Source of the DNA: Paracoccaceae bacterium
Lineage (GTDB): Bacteria; Pseudomonadota; Alphaproteobacteria; Rhodobacterales; Rhodobacteraceae
Reading direction: 5' to 3'
Assembly: GCA_012103375.1 (NCBI GenBank)
Contig: WLWX01000001.1
Span: 2,210,492 to 2,274,491 of the forward strand
DNA: 64,000 nt
Shown: in pieces, positions 33,954-59,710 of the stretch
Position numbering within the stretch: the first letter of the stretch is position 1
How the letters are laid out: each line of letters starts with the position of its first letter
Notes under the pieces: generated by a model
The model's database searches: none
The model's input: the letters and a program-made list of their open reading frames with translations, nothing else
What the model was told of the DNA's origin: nothing
Made by a program: the position numbers and the translations under genes

Positions 33954-34214
33954 CTGCACAATCCTGAAAACCTGAATCTCTTCAGGAATTCCCTGCGCCC
34001 TGTGCGCGCCAAAGGCGCGAGGCGCGCACGCCGGACCGGCCCCACCGGTCTGGCGCCGGTTCGAGGTGGTCACATCCGGGATAGTTGACGGCTAACACCT
34101 CCCCATAAATCATGCCCGTCAACCGTCGCTGCGCCAGCCCGCCGGTCCGGCGCGCGCCCTGCTAAGATCGGGCGATTGTCCTCGAACATTTTCGCCGATC
34201 AAATTGATGGCGCA

Positions 34215-35087
34215 CTAGCTGCGCTCGCGTCCCGCAAACCTTGGCAGCATTGCCGAGAAATCGCGCCCGGCGCCGCCCTCGGCCTCGACGAATTGCGCAT
34301 ATAGGTCACGCGCGGCGGCCCCAAGGGGGGTGTCGGCGTCGACCCCTTCGGCAGCCTCCTGCGACAGGCGCAGATCCTTCAGCATCAGATCGGCAGCAAA
34401 GCCGGGTTGATACCCGTTGTCGGCGGGCGAGGTTGGGCCGACGCCGGGGGCCGGGCAGTAGGTATTCATCGACCAGCTTTGCCCGGAAGAGGTTGAAACC
34501 ACGTCGAACATCGCCTGATTGTCAAGGCCCAACTTGTCGGCGAGCGCGAATGCCTCGCACGTTGCGATCATCGTCACACCCAGGATCATGTTGTTGCAGA
34601 TCTTTGCGGCCTGTCCGTTGCCCGCCGGGCCGCAATGTACCGCCCTCTGACCCATCACATCGAACAGCGGACGGACGGTTGCGAATGCCGCATCAGACCC
34701 GCCCACCATGAAAGTCAGCGTCCCAGCCGAGGCCCCGCCGGTGCCCCCGGACACGGGCGCATCCAAGGCATCGACGCCAAAATCCGCCGCCTGCGCCGCG
34801 ACGTCGCGCGCGCTTGTCACATCAACGGTCGAGCAATCCAGATGCACCGCCCCCCGCGCCATCGACGGTAATATTTCGTCGGCCACGGTGCGCAGGATCG
34901 CGCCGTTCGGCAGCATGGTTATGACCACCTCGGCATCCCTGGCTGCATTCGCGGCGCTCTCAGCAGGCGACACGCCCGCTGGGCAGGGGGCGGCGGTGTC
35001 GAACCCGCTGACCTGATGCCCGGCCGCCGCAAGGTTGGCCGCCATCGGTGCGCCCATGTTACCAAGCCCGATAAAGCCGATCTTCAT
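34215..35087 (-). CDS. mmsB: 3-hydroxyisobutyrate dehydrogenase
   Basis: ORF 34215-35339 trimmed to ATG 35087 (MKIGFIGLGNMGAPMAANL...). The upstream 84 codons of the track ORF are read-through from MITE copy 4. Confidence 0.85.
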   Translation of the reverse strand: MKIGFIGLGNMGAPMAANLAAAGHQVSGFDTAAPCPAGVSPAESAANAARDAEVVITMLPNGAILRTVADEILPSMARGAVHLDCSTVDVTSARDVAAQAADFGVDALDAPVSGGTGGASAGTLTFMVGGSDAAFATVRPLFDVMGQRAVHCGPAGNGQAAKICNNMILGVTMIATCEAFALADKLGLDNQAMFDVVSTSSGQSWSMNTYCPAPGVGPTSPADNGYQPGFAADLMLKDLRLSQEAAEGVDADTPLGAAARDLYAQFVEAEGGAGRDFSAMLPRFAGRERS

Positions 35088-36349
35088 GTCTGACCCCCTT
35101 CGAATGTCAGCCCGGTATCGCGCAGCGGCTGCATCATGGCCGCGACCTCGGCCATTTTCACGTCCCGCCAGGAGGCATGCCGCCACATCGGCGTGTCGTC
35201 CCGGTCGATGATCTTGGCGCGGATGCCTTCGATGAAGTCGCCATGTTCCATGGATCGCGCCGTGATGCGAAATTCCTGTTCCAGCGGATTGTGTTGAAAA
35301 ACTCCGTTTTAGGGCCTGAACGATGATTTTTCTTTCCATGCAGCCCGATCCTAAATTTTTGGCGCGGGGGTCGGCCCAAATCGCCTACATGCGCTCACGC
35401 GCAGCCATGCGCTGTCTCGTGGTCAAAGCTTTCCGACTATTTCGCTTCATAGGTTTTCGCAAGAAATCCGCGACGCTCTGATTTCGGAGTTTTTCAACAC
35501 AATCAGCGCATAGCGGATCTGGGGCCGTACGCGCACGCGGTGGATCAACTGCGTTGCGCAGAACAGCGACAGCGGTGCGATCCGTGCCAGTTTTCCGCGC
35601 GTTTGGCGGCTGAAATCGCCGTCGTCTGTTTCAAGCGAGCGCATGATGTCGCCAAAGGTCTCTCCGCCGAAATGGGTGTCGATGGCGGGCTGCATGGCGG
35701 CCAGGTTCGACGCGCCGGGGTCCGTCGCCACCGCGTCCACCGCTGTCCAGTCGCCGGTGTCGACAAGCGCGGCCTTCAACGCGTCCCAGCGGTCCTGGGG
35801 CACGACATAATCCGCGAACCCGGCGTGCACCGCATCCGCTGGCCCCATCCGGTCTGCCGTCAGCCCCAGATACTCGCCGCAGCGCCCGGGTGCCTGCGCC
35901 AGCAGGAGGGAGCCGCCGACGTCCGGCACAAGCCCGATGCCAACCTCTGGTATCGCGATCTTCGAGGTTTCGGCGACGATCCGGTGTGAGGCATGGCACC
36001 CGACCCCAACGCCGCCGCCCATGGTGAAGCCTTGCAAGAAGCTGGCGACGGGCTTCGGAAACTCGAACAGCCGCGCGTTCATCCGGTATTCATCGCGCCA
36101 GAACCGCTGGCCATAGGTGAAATCGCTCGCCAACCCGGCGCGATACATCTCGGTGATGTCGCCGCCCGCACAGAAGCTGCGGCCTTCGCCCTCGATCAGC
36201 AGCATCCTGATGTTTGGATCGTCGGCCCAGCCGACAAGCGCGGCGTCGATGTCCAGACACATCTGATGGGTCAGCGCATTCAGCGCATCAGGGCGGTTCA
36301 GCGTGATGCGGCCAAGCGCACCGTCGCGGCGGATGTGAATGTCACTCAT
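35084..36349 (-). pseudogene. 3-hydroxyisobutyryl-CoA hydrolase (crotonase superfamily), split by MITE copy 4
   Basis: N-terminal part from ATG 36349: MSDIHIRRDGALGRITLNRPDALNAL...EGEGRSFCAGGD...QGFTMGGGVG...RPQIRYAL, up to the MITE. After the MITE plus TSD the same frame continues EQEFRITARSMEHGDFIEGIRAKIIDRDDTPMWRHASWRDV...FEGGQT*, with its stop overlapping the mmsB ATG. Confidence 0.8.
35287..35504 (+). mobile_element. MITE-like element, copy 4 (218 bp)
   Basis: Perfect 20-bp TIRs. Flanked by AGCG/AGCG. Confidence 0.85.
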
Positions 36350-36435
36350 CGTTCTACCATCCCCCGCGCCACGATCAGGCACATGATTTCGTTCGTGGTT
36401 TTCACGTTCTTATCCACCTTGAGGTCGCGGACGAT
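36346..36435 (-). pseudogene. possible 3' remnant (about 29 codons) of an acyl-CoA dehydrogenase
   Basis: Manual translation gives IVRDLKVDKNVKTTNEIMCLIVARGMVER*, with its TGA overlapping the hydrolase ATG. It resembles the ACAD C-terminus (..RD.r...i.EGT.EI...iiAR..) with EG degraded to KT. An in-frame TAG lies immediately upstream. Confidence 0.3.
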
Positions 36436-36592
36436 CTATTCGATGCCAAAACTGGCGAGGTCCATGGCCGCATTGTCACTGCGCCGCATGCGGATGCAAG
36501 AGGGTAGGGCGCGAGGCACCGAAACCCGGTTCGGGGCGGAAACATCACCACCCTGCGCCGGGTTCGATGGCATGGGAGCATCCGCAGTACCG

Positions 36593-37996
36593 TCAGTTTG
36601 TTATCAGCTCGGGCCCCATGAAATACGTCGGCAGGAAGGTCGAGATGATGGGCACATAGGTCACCAGGATCAGGAAGACGAACAGCACCGCCAGGAACGG
36701 CAGGGCGGCGCGCACGACGGCCATCATCGACATGCCCGCAACGCCAGAGGTGACAAACAGGTTCAGCCCAACCGGCGGCGTGATCATACCAATCTCCATG
36801 TTCACCACCATGATGATGCCCAGGTGGATCGGATCGATGCCCAGTTCGATGGCAATCGGAAACACCAGCGGAGCGACGATCACCAACAGGCCTGATGGTT
36901 CCATGAATTGCCCGCCGATCAGCAGGATCACATTGACCATGATCAGGAACATCACCGGACCAAACCCGGCCGACAGCATGGCCTGCGCAATGTGCTGGGG
37001 GATCTGCTCGTCCGTCAGAACGTGTTTCAGGATCAACGCATTGGCAATCACGAAAAGCAGCGTGACGGTCAGGCGTCCGGCGTCGAACAACGCCCGCCTG
37101 GTGTCGCGGTGAAAAAACGACGGCACCAGATAGATCACCGCATCCAGCGCCATCCGCGGCAGCATAGCAACCGCTGCCCCCGGAGAGCCGGGAACAGGCC
37201 GATCCGTCAGCGGCCCCATGTCGCGATAGACGAAGGTCGCCACGAAGAAGGCATAGACGCTGGCGACGGCGGCAGCCTCGGTCGGGGTGAAAATGCCGCC
37301 ATAGATGCCGCCCAGAATGATCACGATCAGGAACAGGCCAAAGAAGGCGCTGGCCCCGGATGCGGCAATCTCGGTCCAGCCGCGCCATTCGCCCTTGGGC
37401 AGGTTCCTGATCTTGGCGATGGCATAGATCGTCACCATCAGCATCAGCCCCGCCAGCAGCCCCGACAACACCCCGGCCAGGAACATCCGACCGACCGAGA
37501 CCTCGACCGCTGCCGCATAAACCACCATGACGATGGACGGCGGGATCAGGATGCCCAGCGTACCCGCGTTGCAGATCACCCCGGCCGCGAATTCCTTGGA
37601 ATACCCGACCTGTCGCATGCCCGCGATCACGATCGAACCGATGGCCACAACGGTTGCGGGCGACGACCCGGACAATGCTGCAAACAGCATGCAGGCAAAC
37701 ACCCCGGCAATGGCCAGCCCACCGGGCAGATGCCCGACACAGGCAATGGAAAACCGGATGATCCGCTGCGCGACGCCGCCGGTCGTCATGAAGGACGACG
37801 CCAGGATGAAGAACGGAATGGCCAGAAGGGTGAAGTGCCCCTCGAACGCTTCGAACAGCGTCTGCGCGATCGAGGCCAGCGACGTGTCCGAGAACATCAG
37901 CAGGAACAGAGTCGAGCTTAGCCCCAGGCTGACCGCGATGGGCACACCGATCATCAGCAGGCCGATGACCAGTGCGAACAGAAATACGACCTCCAT
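36593..37996 (-). CDS. dctM: TRAP transporter large permease (DctM)
   Basis: ORF track, 467 aa. Polytopic membrane protein, last gene of the P-Q-M order. Confidence 0.85.
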   Translation of the reverse strand: MEVVFLFALVIGLLMIGVPIAVSLGLSSTLFLLMFSDTSLASIAQTLFEAFEGHFTLLAIPFFILASSFMTTGGVAQRIIRFSIACVGHLPGGLAIAGVFACMLFAALSGSSPATVVAIGSIVIAGMRQVGYSKEFAAGVICNAGTLGILIPPSIVMVVYAAAVEVSVGRMFLAGVLSGLLAGLMLMVTIYAIAKIRNLPKGEWRGWTEIAASGASAFFGLFLIVIILGGIYGGIFTPTEAAAVASVYAFFVATFVYRDMGPLTDRPVPGSPGAAVAMLPRMALDAVIYLVPSFFHRDTRRALFDAGRLTVTLLFVIANALILKHVLTDEQIPQHIAQAMLSAGFGPVMFLIMVNVILLIGGQFMEPSGLLVIVAPLVFPIAIELGIDPIHLGIIMVVNMEIGMITPPVGLNLFVTSGVAGMSMMAVVRAALPFLAVLFVFLILVTYVPIISTFLPTYFMGPELITN

Positions 37997-37999
37997 CGC

Positions 38000-38674
38000 T
38001 CAGACGTCCTTTGTTGCGGCGCGCTGCGCCGCTTCGATATCGTCGTCTTCAACTTCGTGGCTGGCGACGATCCGGTCGATATCTCCGCGCCAGATCGCGA
38101 TGGCTGCCTGGAAGAAACGCAGCATCAGCAGCGCGGCGGACAGCGGCAGGATGAAATAGGGCACGACCTTTGGCAGCTTTTCATATGCTTCGCCATAGTT
38201 GATCGCGCCTTCCAGGAAGCCGAAAATGCCGATCATTGGTATGTCGTCTACTTCGTAAAAACTCTGGCTGCGGAACTTGTCTTCAAAGCCGGTGGGGAAC
38301 CAGCGCCCGCTGGTCGGGGGCAGATCGGCAAAGACCGACCAATAGTCATAGGCCCCTTTCAGCAGCAATACCGAGAAGATCATGCAGGCCACGACCGAGA
38401 TCAGGCCCAATGCACGACGCGCCGCTGGCGGCAACAGGTTGACGATCGCATCCACGCCCAGATGCGCGCCCTTCTTGACCGCATAGGGTGCGCCCAGAAG
38501 TACCAGCCAGCCGAACAGGAACACAGTGGTTTCCAGCGCCCAGAGGATATTGGAGTTAAAGAAATACCGCGCCAAGACATTGGCGAATGTGATGGCCACC
38601 ATCAGCCCCAGGATGCCGACGATCAGCGTTTCCTCCAGCTGGTCCACAAAGCCGGAGCTTTCATGCGTCTGCAT
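38000..38674 (-). CDS. dctQ: TRAP transporter small permease (DctQ)
   Basis: ORF track, 224 aa with four hydrophobic segments. Lies 3 nt upstream of dctM. Confidence 0.8.
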   Translation of the reverse strand: MQTHESSGFVDQLEETLIVGILGLMVAITFANVLARYFFNSNILWALETTVFLFGWLVLLGAPYAVKKGAHLGVDAIVNLLPPAARRALGLISVVACMIFSVLLLKGAYDYWSVFADLPPTSGRWFPTGFEDKFRSQSFYEVDDIPMIGIFGFLEGAINYGEAYEKLPKVVPYFILPLSAALLMLRFFQAAIAIWRGDIDRIVASHEVEDDDIEAAQRAATKDV

Positions 38675-38750
38675 GCCGTCCCCCCCGATTGCCCCTGTCG
38701 TTATTTTTGATGCGGGCCTGCCAAATGACCGGCAGGCCCGCTGTTTTGGT

Positions 38751-39767
38751 TCAGCTTCCGGCGTTGAAGCTTTGGGCCGCGTCGATCATGTCCTGACCAA
38801 CGTCACCGGCGAACTTGTCCCAAACCGGCTTCATCGCTTCGACCCAGGCCGCGCGCTGTGCGTCGTCCAGCTGGCGAATGACGCCACCGGCGTCCAGGAT
38901 CGACTGTTTGGCGGCCTCGTTCACGGCGAAAGCCTCTCCGTTGCGAAGCTCGGTCACTTCGTTAAGGATGGTGGTGAACTGGTCACGCACCGCCGGATCA
39001 AGACTGTCCAGCCAGTCAACGCTGGCTACCACCAGATAGTCGATGATGCCGTGGTTGGTTTCGGTCACGCCGTCCTGAACTTCGAAGAACTTGCGTCCGA
39101 AGATGTTCGACCAGGTGTTTTCCTGCCCGTCCACAACGCCCTGCTGCAACGCGCCGTAAACTTCCGAGAACGCCATTTTCTGCGGCGACCCGCCAATGGC
39201 TTCCATCTGCGCGACCAGCACGTCCGAGGATTGCACGCGGAACTTCAGGCCGTTGGCGTCGGTGGGCAGAACCAGCGGCACATTGGCCGACATTTGCTTC
39301 ATACCGTTGTGCCAGAACGCCATGCCCTGCAGGCCACGGCGCTGCATGCTGTCCTTCATCGCCTGACCGGCATCCGAGGCCTGAAATCCGTCGACCGCTT
39401 CGATGTCCTTGAACATGAACGGCAGGTCGAACAGGCGGAATTGCTTGGTGAACTTCTCGAACTTCGACAAGCTGGGTGCGGCCAGCTGAACGTCGCCCTG
39501 AAGCATCGCCTCAAGCACTTTGTCGTCGTTGTAGAGGGTCGAGTTCGGGAACACCTCCATACAGGCGGTGCCGTCCATTTCGGTGTTCACACGTTCCATC
39601 AGAAGGGTCGCGGCGATGCCCTTTGGATGCTTGTCGGTGTTGGTGACGTGGCTGAATTTGATGACAATTTCACCGTCGTCGCATCCGCCCGCATGGCTGG
39701 CAGCATGCGCGGCACCGGCACTGGCAGCCAGTGCTGCGGCAGCAACTGTGTGAATGATGTGTTTCAT
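38751..39767 (-). CDS. dctP: TRAP transporter substrate-binding protein, DctP type (C4-dicarboxylate-like)
   Basis: ORF track, 338 aa with a signal peptide. IVIKFSHVTNTDKHPKG...LAAPSLSKF...FDLPFMFKD...FWHNGMKQMSAN...MAFSEVYGALQQGVVDGQEN closely parallels my recollection of Rhodobacter capsulatus DctP. Confidence 0.85.
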   Translation of the reverse strand: MKHIIHTVAAAALAASAGAAHAASHAGGCDDGEIVIKFSHVTNTDKHPKGIAATLLMERVNTEMDGTACMEVFPNSTLYNDDKVLEAMLQGDVQLAAPSLSKFEKFTKQFRLFDLPFMFKDIEAVDGFQASDAGQAMKDSMQRRGLQGMAFWHNGMKQMSANVPLVLPTDANGLKFRVQSSDVLVAQMEAIGGSPQKMAFSEVYGALQQGVVDGQENTWSNIFGRKFFEVQDGVTETNHGIIDYLVVASVDWLDSLDPAVRDQFTTILNEVTELRNGEAFAVNEAAKQSILDAGGVIRQLDDAQRAAWVEAMKPVWDKFAGDVGQDMIDAAQSFNAGS

Positions 39768-59492: not shown

Positions 59493-59710
59493 GATTGTGT
59501 TGAAAAACTCCGAAATCAGAGCGTCGCGGATTTCTTGCGAAAACCTATGAAGCGAAATAGTCGGAAAGCTTTGACCACGAGACAGCGCATGGCTGCGCGT
59601 GAGCGCATGTAGGCGATTTGGGCCGACCCCCGCGCCAAAAATTTAGGATCGGGCTGCATGGAAAGAAAAATCATCGTTCAGGCCCTAAAACGGAGTTTTT
59701 CAACACAATC
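59493..59710 (-). mobile_element. MITE-like element, copy 5 (218 bp, inverted relative to copies 1-4)
   Basis: Perfect 20-bp TIRs. Flanked by GGCT/GGCC (3 of 4 matching). Confidence 0.85.

Follow-up and report, generated by a model that had tools for sequence, protein, structure and literature searches.

What becomes of a metabolic gene, and of a downstream gene that is probably coupled to it, when a short mobile element enters the coding frame? The question is raised by a locus in a 64,000-nt stretch of Paracoccaceae bacterium (assembly GCA_012103375.1, contig WLWX01000001.1, positions 2,210,492 to 2,274,491 of the forward strand), which was analysed as a whole and is called the window below. 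Here, a 218-bp miniature inverted-repeat transposable element (MITE) lies within a gene for a 3-hydroxyisobutyryl-CoA hydrolase, directly upstream of mmsB, which encodes 3-hydroxyisobutyrate dehydrogenase. The genome has a size of 4.02 Mb and a completeness of 99.96% by marker genes. We consider it highly probable that a recent insertion of the MITE has made the only HIBCH-type hydrolase gene of this genome an insertional pseudogene.

Interruption of the hydrolase gene

Coordinates are those of the window, and the minus strand is read as the coding strand; all features of the locus lie on it except the MITE, to which no strand is assigned. The 5′ part of the hydrolase gene (35505..36349) is an open reading frame (ORF) that starts at ATG 36349, comprises codons 1-281 and the first two bases of codon L282, and ends with the reading ...VRVRPQIRYAL. 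On the coding strand, the target-site duplication reads CGCT; its upstream copy occupies 35505..35508, and its downstream copy occupies 35283..35286. Between them lies the MITE (35287..35504), bounded by perfect 20-bp terminal inverted repeats, GATTGTGTTGAAAAACTCCG. A premature TGA (35447..35449) is encountered after 18 element-coded codons, IVLKNSEIRASRISCENL, so that the encoded product consists of 282 native and 18 MITE-coded residues (300 aa in total) and the 65 C-terminal residues are gone. Because the element and the duplication together amount to 222 nt (218+4), the hydrolase frame is kept downstream of the MITE, where it resumes as EQEFRITARSMEHGDFIEGIRAKIIDRDDTPMW... in a stranded 3′ part (35084..35282) of codons 283-347 plus the stop codon. 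That TGA (35086-35084) overlaps the ATG of mmsB (35087-35085) as ATGA, and the mmsB gene itself (34215..35087, 290 aa) is intact. An earlier note on this DNA, which had described the truncation, the element, the CGCT duplication, the resumed frame and the ATGA overlap, was correct in all of these statements and in their coordinates.

When the two flanks are joined, they encode a 347-aa protein that matches positions 10-353 of 356 of the NF004127 profile for 3-hydroxyisobutyryl-CoA hydrolase with 362 bits (cut-off 274); this is the full-length match above the cut-off that is expected of the family (NF004127 / Pfam ECH_2). The closest solved chain is 4j2u (residues 23-361, E = 3e-101, aligned with residues 1-343 of the joined protein), and 4hdt (E = 1e-81) and the human structure 3bpt are also matched. 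The joined hydrolase resembles these HIBCH structures from end to end, whereas the actual gene is split and its encoded protein lacks the last 65 residues. One uninterrupted frame that includes the C-terminal helical segment, which membership among the hydrolases requires, is not present at this locus. In an intact frame, residues 5-281 of the mmsB product align with positions 1-284 of 288 of the TIGR01692 profile for 3-hydroxyisobutyrate dehydrogenase, with a score of 371 bits (cut-off 291.6). The hydrolase and MmsB catalyse successive reactions in the breakdown of valine, as the earlier note had stated.

Relatives with an uninterrupted gene

The most closely related gene was found in a congener (genome G001, the same record as L013), the metagenome-assembled genome "uncultured Rhodobacteraceae bacterium K_MB387". 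Its hydrolase is encoded by one unbroken gene with 84% identity over residues 2-343, and the 120-nt sequence of the joined flanks aligns with it without gaps. In a seven-sequence protein alignment that includes the congener and five further genera, the invariant columns around the insertion are A281, L282, E285, R287, T289, and R291, and they are followed by an invariant block of D297, F298, E300, G301, I302, R303, A304, I306, I307, D308, D310, P313, and W315. Altogether, the segment lost from the hydrolase holds 24 invariant columns of this alignment. Residues 1-335 or more are covered by all 80 kept loci of the 553 relatives (genome contigs). Among the 120 best matches in a collection of 5.8 billion proteins, 118 have lengths of 338-363 aa, and the other two are the 340-aa protein of the congener and the 300-aa truncated form. 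The gene is thus uninterrupted at the insertion point in the congener and in more distant genera, none of the relatives examined ends at ...IRYAL, and the downstream EQEFR... segment, which the earlier note had taken for the family C-terminus, is that C-terminus and is continuous in the congener and in other genera.

The only near-identical cluster among the 120 listed matches is the 300-aa truncated form of this organism (P0001), and the next is the 340-aa protein of the congener at 84%. A full-length allele of this species was not found: the exact joined protein is unrecorded, and no full-length cluster exceeds 84% identity. Likewise, no second hydrolase paralogue was detected in the 4.02-Mb genome, where the other tblastn matches are ordinary crotonases that align with residues 1-194 only, at 34% identity or less. 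The claim that the hydrolase is inactivated stands on the uninterrupted relatives and the loss of a conserved C-terminus. As far as can be judged from the sequence, we regard the inactivity of the hydrolase as strongly supported, and the locus would be an insertional pseudogene rather than a working member of the family.

The interrupted allele is also present in independent assemblies. Nine contigs of public assemblies code for a protein identical to this MmsB. Over 6873 bp, one scaffold among them (L101) shows 100% identity to the window, with the MITE at the same site, and the 300-aa gene was called there as well. At the hydrolase junction, another three contigs (L102-L104) begin within the MITE, as short-read assemblies do at repeats. 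The junction is thereby present in four metagenome assemblies, three of which are labelled SAMN12718690 / SAMN12718692, whereas the fourth is the Logan assembly of SRR10987117. Both BioSamples appear in Storey et al. 2020 (PMC7157528), where they are listed with metagenome assemblies from the marine sponge Mycale hentscheli. Neither the present bacterium nor its mobile elements are a subject of that paper.

The MITE and its copies

The 20-mer of the terminal repeat occurs 10 times in the window, corresponding to five elements, against 0.00 expected in shuffled sequences. The five copies are 100% identical, and the one in the hydrolase gene is the fourth. In the whole genome there are 185 full-length copies (~40 kb of element DNA), 184 of which are identical and one of which has a single mismatch. 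A perfect 4-bp duplication flanks 145 of the 185 copies, with a target preference for NGCN; the most frequent duplications are GGCC (42), AGCC (17), GGCT (17), CGCC (12), and CGCT/AGCG (7). Duplications of 5 bp accompany four copies, and 36 of the 185 have unequal flanks, mostly with NGCN on both sides. Examples are TGCA/GGCA, AGCC/GGCC, and the copy at 59493-59710 of the window (GGCT / GGCC). The unequal flanks could be the trace of recombination between identical copies that exchanged their flanks, or alternatively of sloppy duplication. Two copies in tandem and in the same orientation, 4 bp apart, were observed at C1:522979-523418.

The element contains stops in all six frames, its longest ORF is 52 aa, and it carries no transposase gene. 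A tolerated in-frame insert of 74 residues, as in the palindromic elements of Rickettsia, was ruled out because of these stops. Terminal inverted repeats, a target duplication of fixed length, small size, dispersed copies and an empty site in relatives identify it as a MITE. It was not found in any of 30 relatives, the congener included. However, a search of 400 genomes of the family revealed relatives of the same length (216-218 bp) with 67-71% identity in several other genera of Rhodobacteraceae. They are located at L094, L095, L097, and other loci (genomes G333, G322, G090, G402, G056, and G263) and share a conserved block, TTTTGGCGAGGGGGTCGGCCAAA. At first look, G090 yielded 66 candidates and may hold another expansion. 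The RNA of the element is predicted to fold with a 20-bp terminal stem (−77.9 kcal/mol, z = −3.9). Rfam gave no meaningful match to it (best mir-148, E = 0.21), and no covariation beyond the terminal stem was found across six members of the MITE family; a structured or known RNA family was therefore dropped as an interpretation. In a limited literature collection, we found no report on MITEs in Rhodobacteraceae.

As a candidate mobiliser, we identified a 1535-bp insertion sequence (IS) with ~27 copies by a count of its ends. It encodes a transposase of the IS1182 family (NF033551, 428 bits, cut-off 270). Of the 20 positions of the MITE ends, 17 are shared by one of its ends, AATTTTGTTGAAAAACTCCT, and 16 by the other, GATTCTGTGGAAAAACAACG; its duplications are also 4 bp (GGCG and GGCC). 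The IS and the MITE thus share GTTGAAAAAC-type ends and a 4-bp duplication at NGCN, but they are alike only for ~20 bp at each end, and the MITE is not an internal-deletion derivative of the IS. Most likely, the MITE was moved in trans by an IS1182-family transposase.

Several observations were made on the other elements of the genome. A copy of the IS1182-family element at C1:3260401-3262157 has a left end that is two bases off the other copies, which raises its match to the MITE end to 19/20, and this copy directly adjoins a MITE, with GGCC shared between them. An element at C1:978605-979877 was considered as an autonomous parent but rejected, since it belongs to the IS630 family and interrupts a MITE copy at a TA. 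It comprises two ORFs and an A7 slippery run, and its position inside a MITE copy indicates the relative order of activity. Approximately 25 further sites have related ends, GATACTGTTGAAAAAGTCCG, and a degenerate IS1182-like copy of 1235 bp with a broken transposase frame is found at C1:2708144-2709378, which indicates that the genome holds several related element lineages. A terminal overlap of contig C1, which had been suspected from duplicate matches, was not confirmed (60% identity at the offset), and no MITE copies lie there.

Translational context of mmsB

The earlier note had also proposed that translation of mmsB was coupled to that of the hydrolase. The ATGA overlap is kept in the congener. 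In genome G016, the hydrolase and mmsB form a single open frame of 658 aa (L007, C1:2809348-...; ...LTFDEEATTMKIAFIGLGNMG...), which would amount to a naturally occurring fusion of the enzymes for successive steps of the pathway. The conserved overlap and the single frame in G016 suggest that coupled translation is likely the normal state, and this part of the proposal is plausible. In the window, the nearest upstream in-frame stop is now 360 nt from mmsB, and the gene has consequently lost the delivery of ribosomes from upstream. A Shine-Dalgarno-like sequence, GAAGGGGGT (35093..35101), is located 5 nt upstream of the mmsB ATG, and the congener has GAAAGGGAA at this position. We found no sigma-70-like promoter in or near the MITE, and terminator-like sites there are confined to the plus strand, with none on the coding strand; signals of either kind supplied by the element were thus not retained as an explanation. 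The further proposal that mmsB is likely affected is reasonable but unproven, and the ribosome-binding site that mmsB appears to possess weakens it.

Decay of the operon and selection history

In the congener, the order of genes is acyl-CoA dehydrogenase (382 aa), hydrolase, and mmsB. In the window, only a relic of the 3′ end of the dehydrogenase gene is present (36356..36471, 80% nucleotide identity to the congener); it comprises the last ~115 nt with a 2-nt deletion and an in-frame TAG, and the rest of the gene is deleted. Neither this deletion nor the number of MITE copies in the whole genome had been taken up in the earlier note. No orthologue of the lost dehydrogenase was found elsewhere in the genome, where the best match has 36% identity. 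Two intact mmsA genes above the family cut-off are located elsewhere in the genome. The relic is now preceded by a same-strand operon for a TRAP transporter, dctPQM (36472-39767). The hydrolase-mmsB pair follows this operon directly, no terminator-like site was observed between them, and the pair may have become co-transcribed with dctPQM after the deletion of the dehydrogenase. On the other side, the congener has a gene for a 242-aa multi-pass membrane protein between mmsB and a flavin monooxygenase gene (L013 4959-5687), and the corresponding site in the window consists of only 260 bp (33954-34214), which indicates that the locus has lost more than the dehydrogenase.

Ratios of nonsynonymous to synonymous divergence (dN/dS) were calculated against the congener for the hydrolase (0.108), mmsB (0.088), and a neighbouring monooxygenase (0.062). 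The low value of the hydrolase indicates purifying selection for most of the time since the species split, but with dS near 1, a recent relaxation of selection would be invisible. Together with the identity of 184 of the 185 copies, a hydrolase dN/dS of 0.11 suggests that the insertion is very recent. Because the operon is already decaying, the loss of the hydrolase probably costs the organism little.

Genes disrupted elsewhere in the genome

To place the hydrolase insertion among the other copies, each site was restored in silico and a spanning gene-like ORF was sought with a codon log-odds score trained on the long ORFs of the genome. By this census, 77 of the 185 sites (roughly 40%) lie in gene-like ORFs, compared with 69-73% of random or NGCN-matched sites, and 48 of the 77 are strong mid-gene insertions. 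The count is conservative because the classifier misses insertions near gene starts. The orientation of the element relative to the gene shows no bias (40 same, 37 opposite). Nine restored ORFs were checked against Pfam, and all nine are recognisable proteins, with the junction inside the matched domain in at least four: a family-5 solute-binding protein, a DHDPS-family enzyme, a nucleotidyl-transferase with a hexapeptide domain, an ABC ATPase, an alpha/beta hydrolase-LuxR fusion, two GMC oxidoreductases, an ornithine/aspartate carbamoyltransferase, and a B12-dependent acyl-CoA mutase. The mutase gene (Pfam MM_CoA_mutase, ~959-962 kb) contains MITEs at 960378 and 961013, and the removal of both yields a 654-aa frame. 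Other tight clusters of the element were noted at 1909-1911 kb, 2076-2082 kb, 3801 kb, and 3892 kb. In the carbamoyltransferase gene, the MITE (C1:748365-748582) lies inside the carbamoyl-phosphate-binding domain; the restored frame begins at profile position 58, and the gene may have a second lesion upstream.

Alternative explanations

The proposed sequence of events is that a non-autonomous DDE transposon of 218 bp, acted on in trans by an IS1182-family transposase, would have entered codon L282 and duplicated CGCT; translation would end 18 codons into the element, giving a 300-aa protein without the conserved 65-residue C-terminus, and read-through transcripts would still allow mmsB to be translated with the help of the Shine-Dalgarno sequence that precedes it. 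Several points weigh against this account. The truncated hydrolase still passes the NF004127 profile (295 bits, cut-off 274) over positions 10-288 of 356, and automatic annotation would consequently still call it a hydrolase. The crotonase core lies upstream of the break and is retained in the 300-aa product together with E135 and D143, invariant columns of the seven-sequence alignment that stand eight residues apart in the motif PE.GIGL.PDVGG and that we take to be the catalytic Glu/Asp pair of human and rat HIBCH; with the passing score, these residues formally leave room for some residual hydrolase activity. The interior of the MITE has no similarity to the IS1182-family element beyond the ends, so that the choice of mobiliser comes down to the ends and the duplication. 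The score used in the census is home-made and was calibrated only on random sites and the nine Pfam checks. An enzyme that still works, either as the 300-aa protein or by reassembly of this protein with a 55-aa piece, would draw on the first two of these points and on the annotation of the 55-aa ORF as ECH_2 by gene callers. However, the only in-frame restart past the last MITE stop is M293 (ATG 35251), which would yield this fragment and is not preceded by a Shine-Dalgarno sequence, and the lost segment, with its 24 invariant columns, is present in every natural homologue among thousands; we therefore regard a functional hydrolase as very unlikely. Less likely still, to the point of being negligible, is that the insert is an error of the assembly, is bypassed or intron-like, or belongs to a minority allele. 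The preserved reading frame (222 nt) would suit a removable element, but nothing supports one positively, whereas the same junction recurs with full identity in the independent scaffold, three further contigs break inside the MITE here, and no intact allele is on record. The inverted ends and the target duplication are typical of DDE transposition, and the stops in all six frames and the lack of an Rfam match also speak against such an insert.

Two further possibilities concern mmsB. Strong polarity, by which the 360 nt of untranslated RNA left by the premature stop and the hairpin of the MITE would terminate transcription or make translation fail and thus effectively silence mmsB, is not exclusive of the insertional pseudogene but would add to it. 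The ATGA of the congener and the fusion in G016, which point to normally coupled translation, are consistent with it, as are the stable predicted fold of the element and a C/G ratio of 1.1-1.4 over ~35370-35250. On the other hand, this bias is weak, the coding strand has no terminator-like site, mmsB has a good Shine-Dalgarno sequence of its own, and the gene is fully intact and identical across samples, so that we consider silencing of mmsB possible but rather doubtful. Alternatively, the MITE might itself supply a translation start. The earlier note had pointed to open frames leaving the element, and a putative start, an ATG within the MITE (35337..35339) that is preceded by AGGA at a distance of 9 nt, opens a frame that leads beyond the element and joins mmsB in frame. 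The open frame 35339..34215 encodes 374 aa, which would be MmsB with 84 additional N-terminal residues; six relatives of the MITE in other genera all have the ATGG, and in five of the six, by our reading of the alignment, the outward frame has no stop before the end of the element. However, the AGGA is not conserved in these relatives, exit ORFs of at least 100 codons number 35 genome-wide compared with 43 in another open frame, the in-gene copies have no preferred orientation, and an open out-of-frame stretch of 66 codons is unremarkable in DNA of 61% G+C. Selection for fusions to the MITE ATG or for orientation was not seen genome-wide. A start supplied by the element is thus improbable, and slightly more so is the idea of the MITE as a portable restart that rewires mmsB, keeping ribosomes on the message and producing an N-terminally extended MmsB.

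Comparison with known elements and implications

MITEs that derive from IS elements or are moved by them are known from various bacteria, including the Correia elements of Neisseria, RUP of Streptococcus pneumoniae, MITEAba12 of Acinetobacter, Nezha, and Chunjie. The element described here is similar to them in its shortness, perfect terminal inverted repeats, fixed duplication, lack of a transposase and many copies, in the presence of a full-length IS with similar ends in the genome, and in its insertions both within and between genes. In contrast, its copies are extremely uniform, the share in coding sequence is high (crudely 40-50%), and the interior is unrelated to that of the candidate parent IS. 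In addition, the family occurs at the same length in other genera of Rhodobacteraceae.

The expansion of IS elements and MITEs with the formation of pseudogenes is a general pattern in recently host-restricted bacteria. The present genome resembles these cases in its many identical mobile-element copies, its many disrupted genes and its origin from sponge metagenomes. It differs from them in that it is still 4.0 Mb and nearly complete, which places any erosion at a very early stage, and in that its link to a host consists of its presence in sponge metagenomes.

Taken by itself, the insertion in the hydrolase gene has produced an insertional pseudogene of an ordinary sort, and events of this type are familiar. 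Annotation pipelines should flag the locus as a pseudogene because the 300-aa fragment passes the family cut-off. What is notable is the near-clonal burst of 185 copies, which has hit dozens of genes in the genome of a sponge-associated member of Rhodobacteraceae. This genome appears to capture a MITE burst at a moment when selection has yet to purge it, and the burst offers a natural record of transposon mutagenesis, from which functions that are dispensable in the present niche can be read. The valine / 3-hydroxyisobutyrate branch, with its dehydrogenase deleted, its hydrolase split and mmsB intact, appears to be among these functions.

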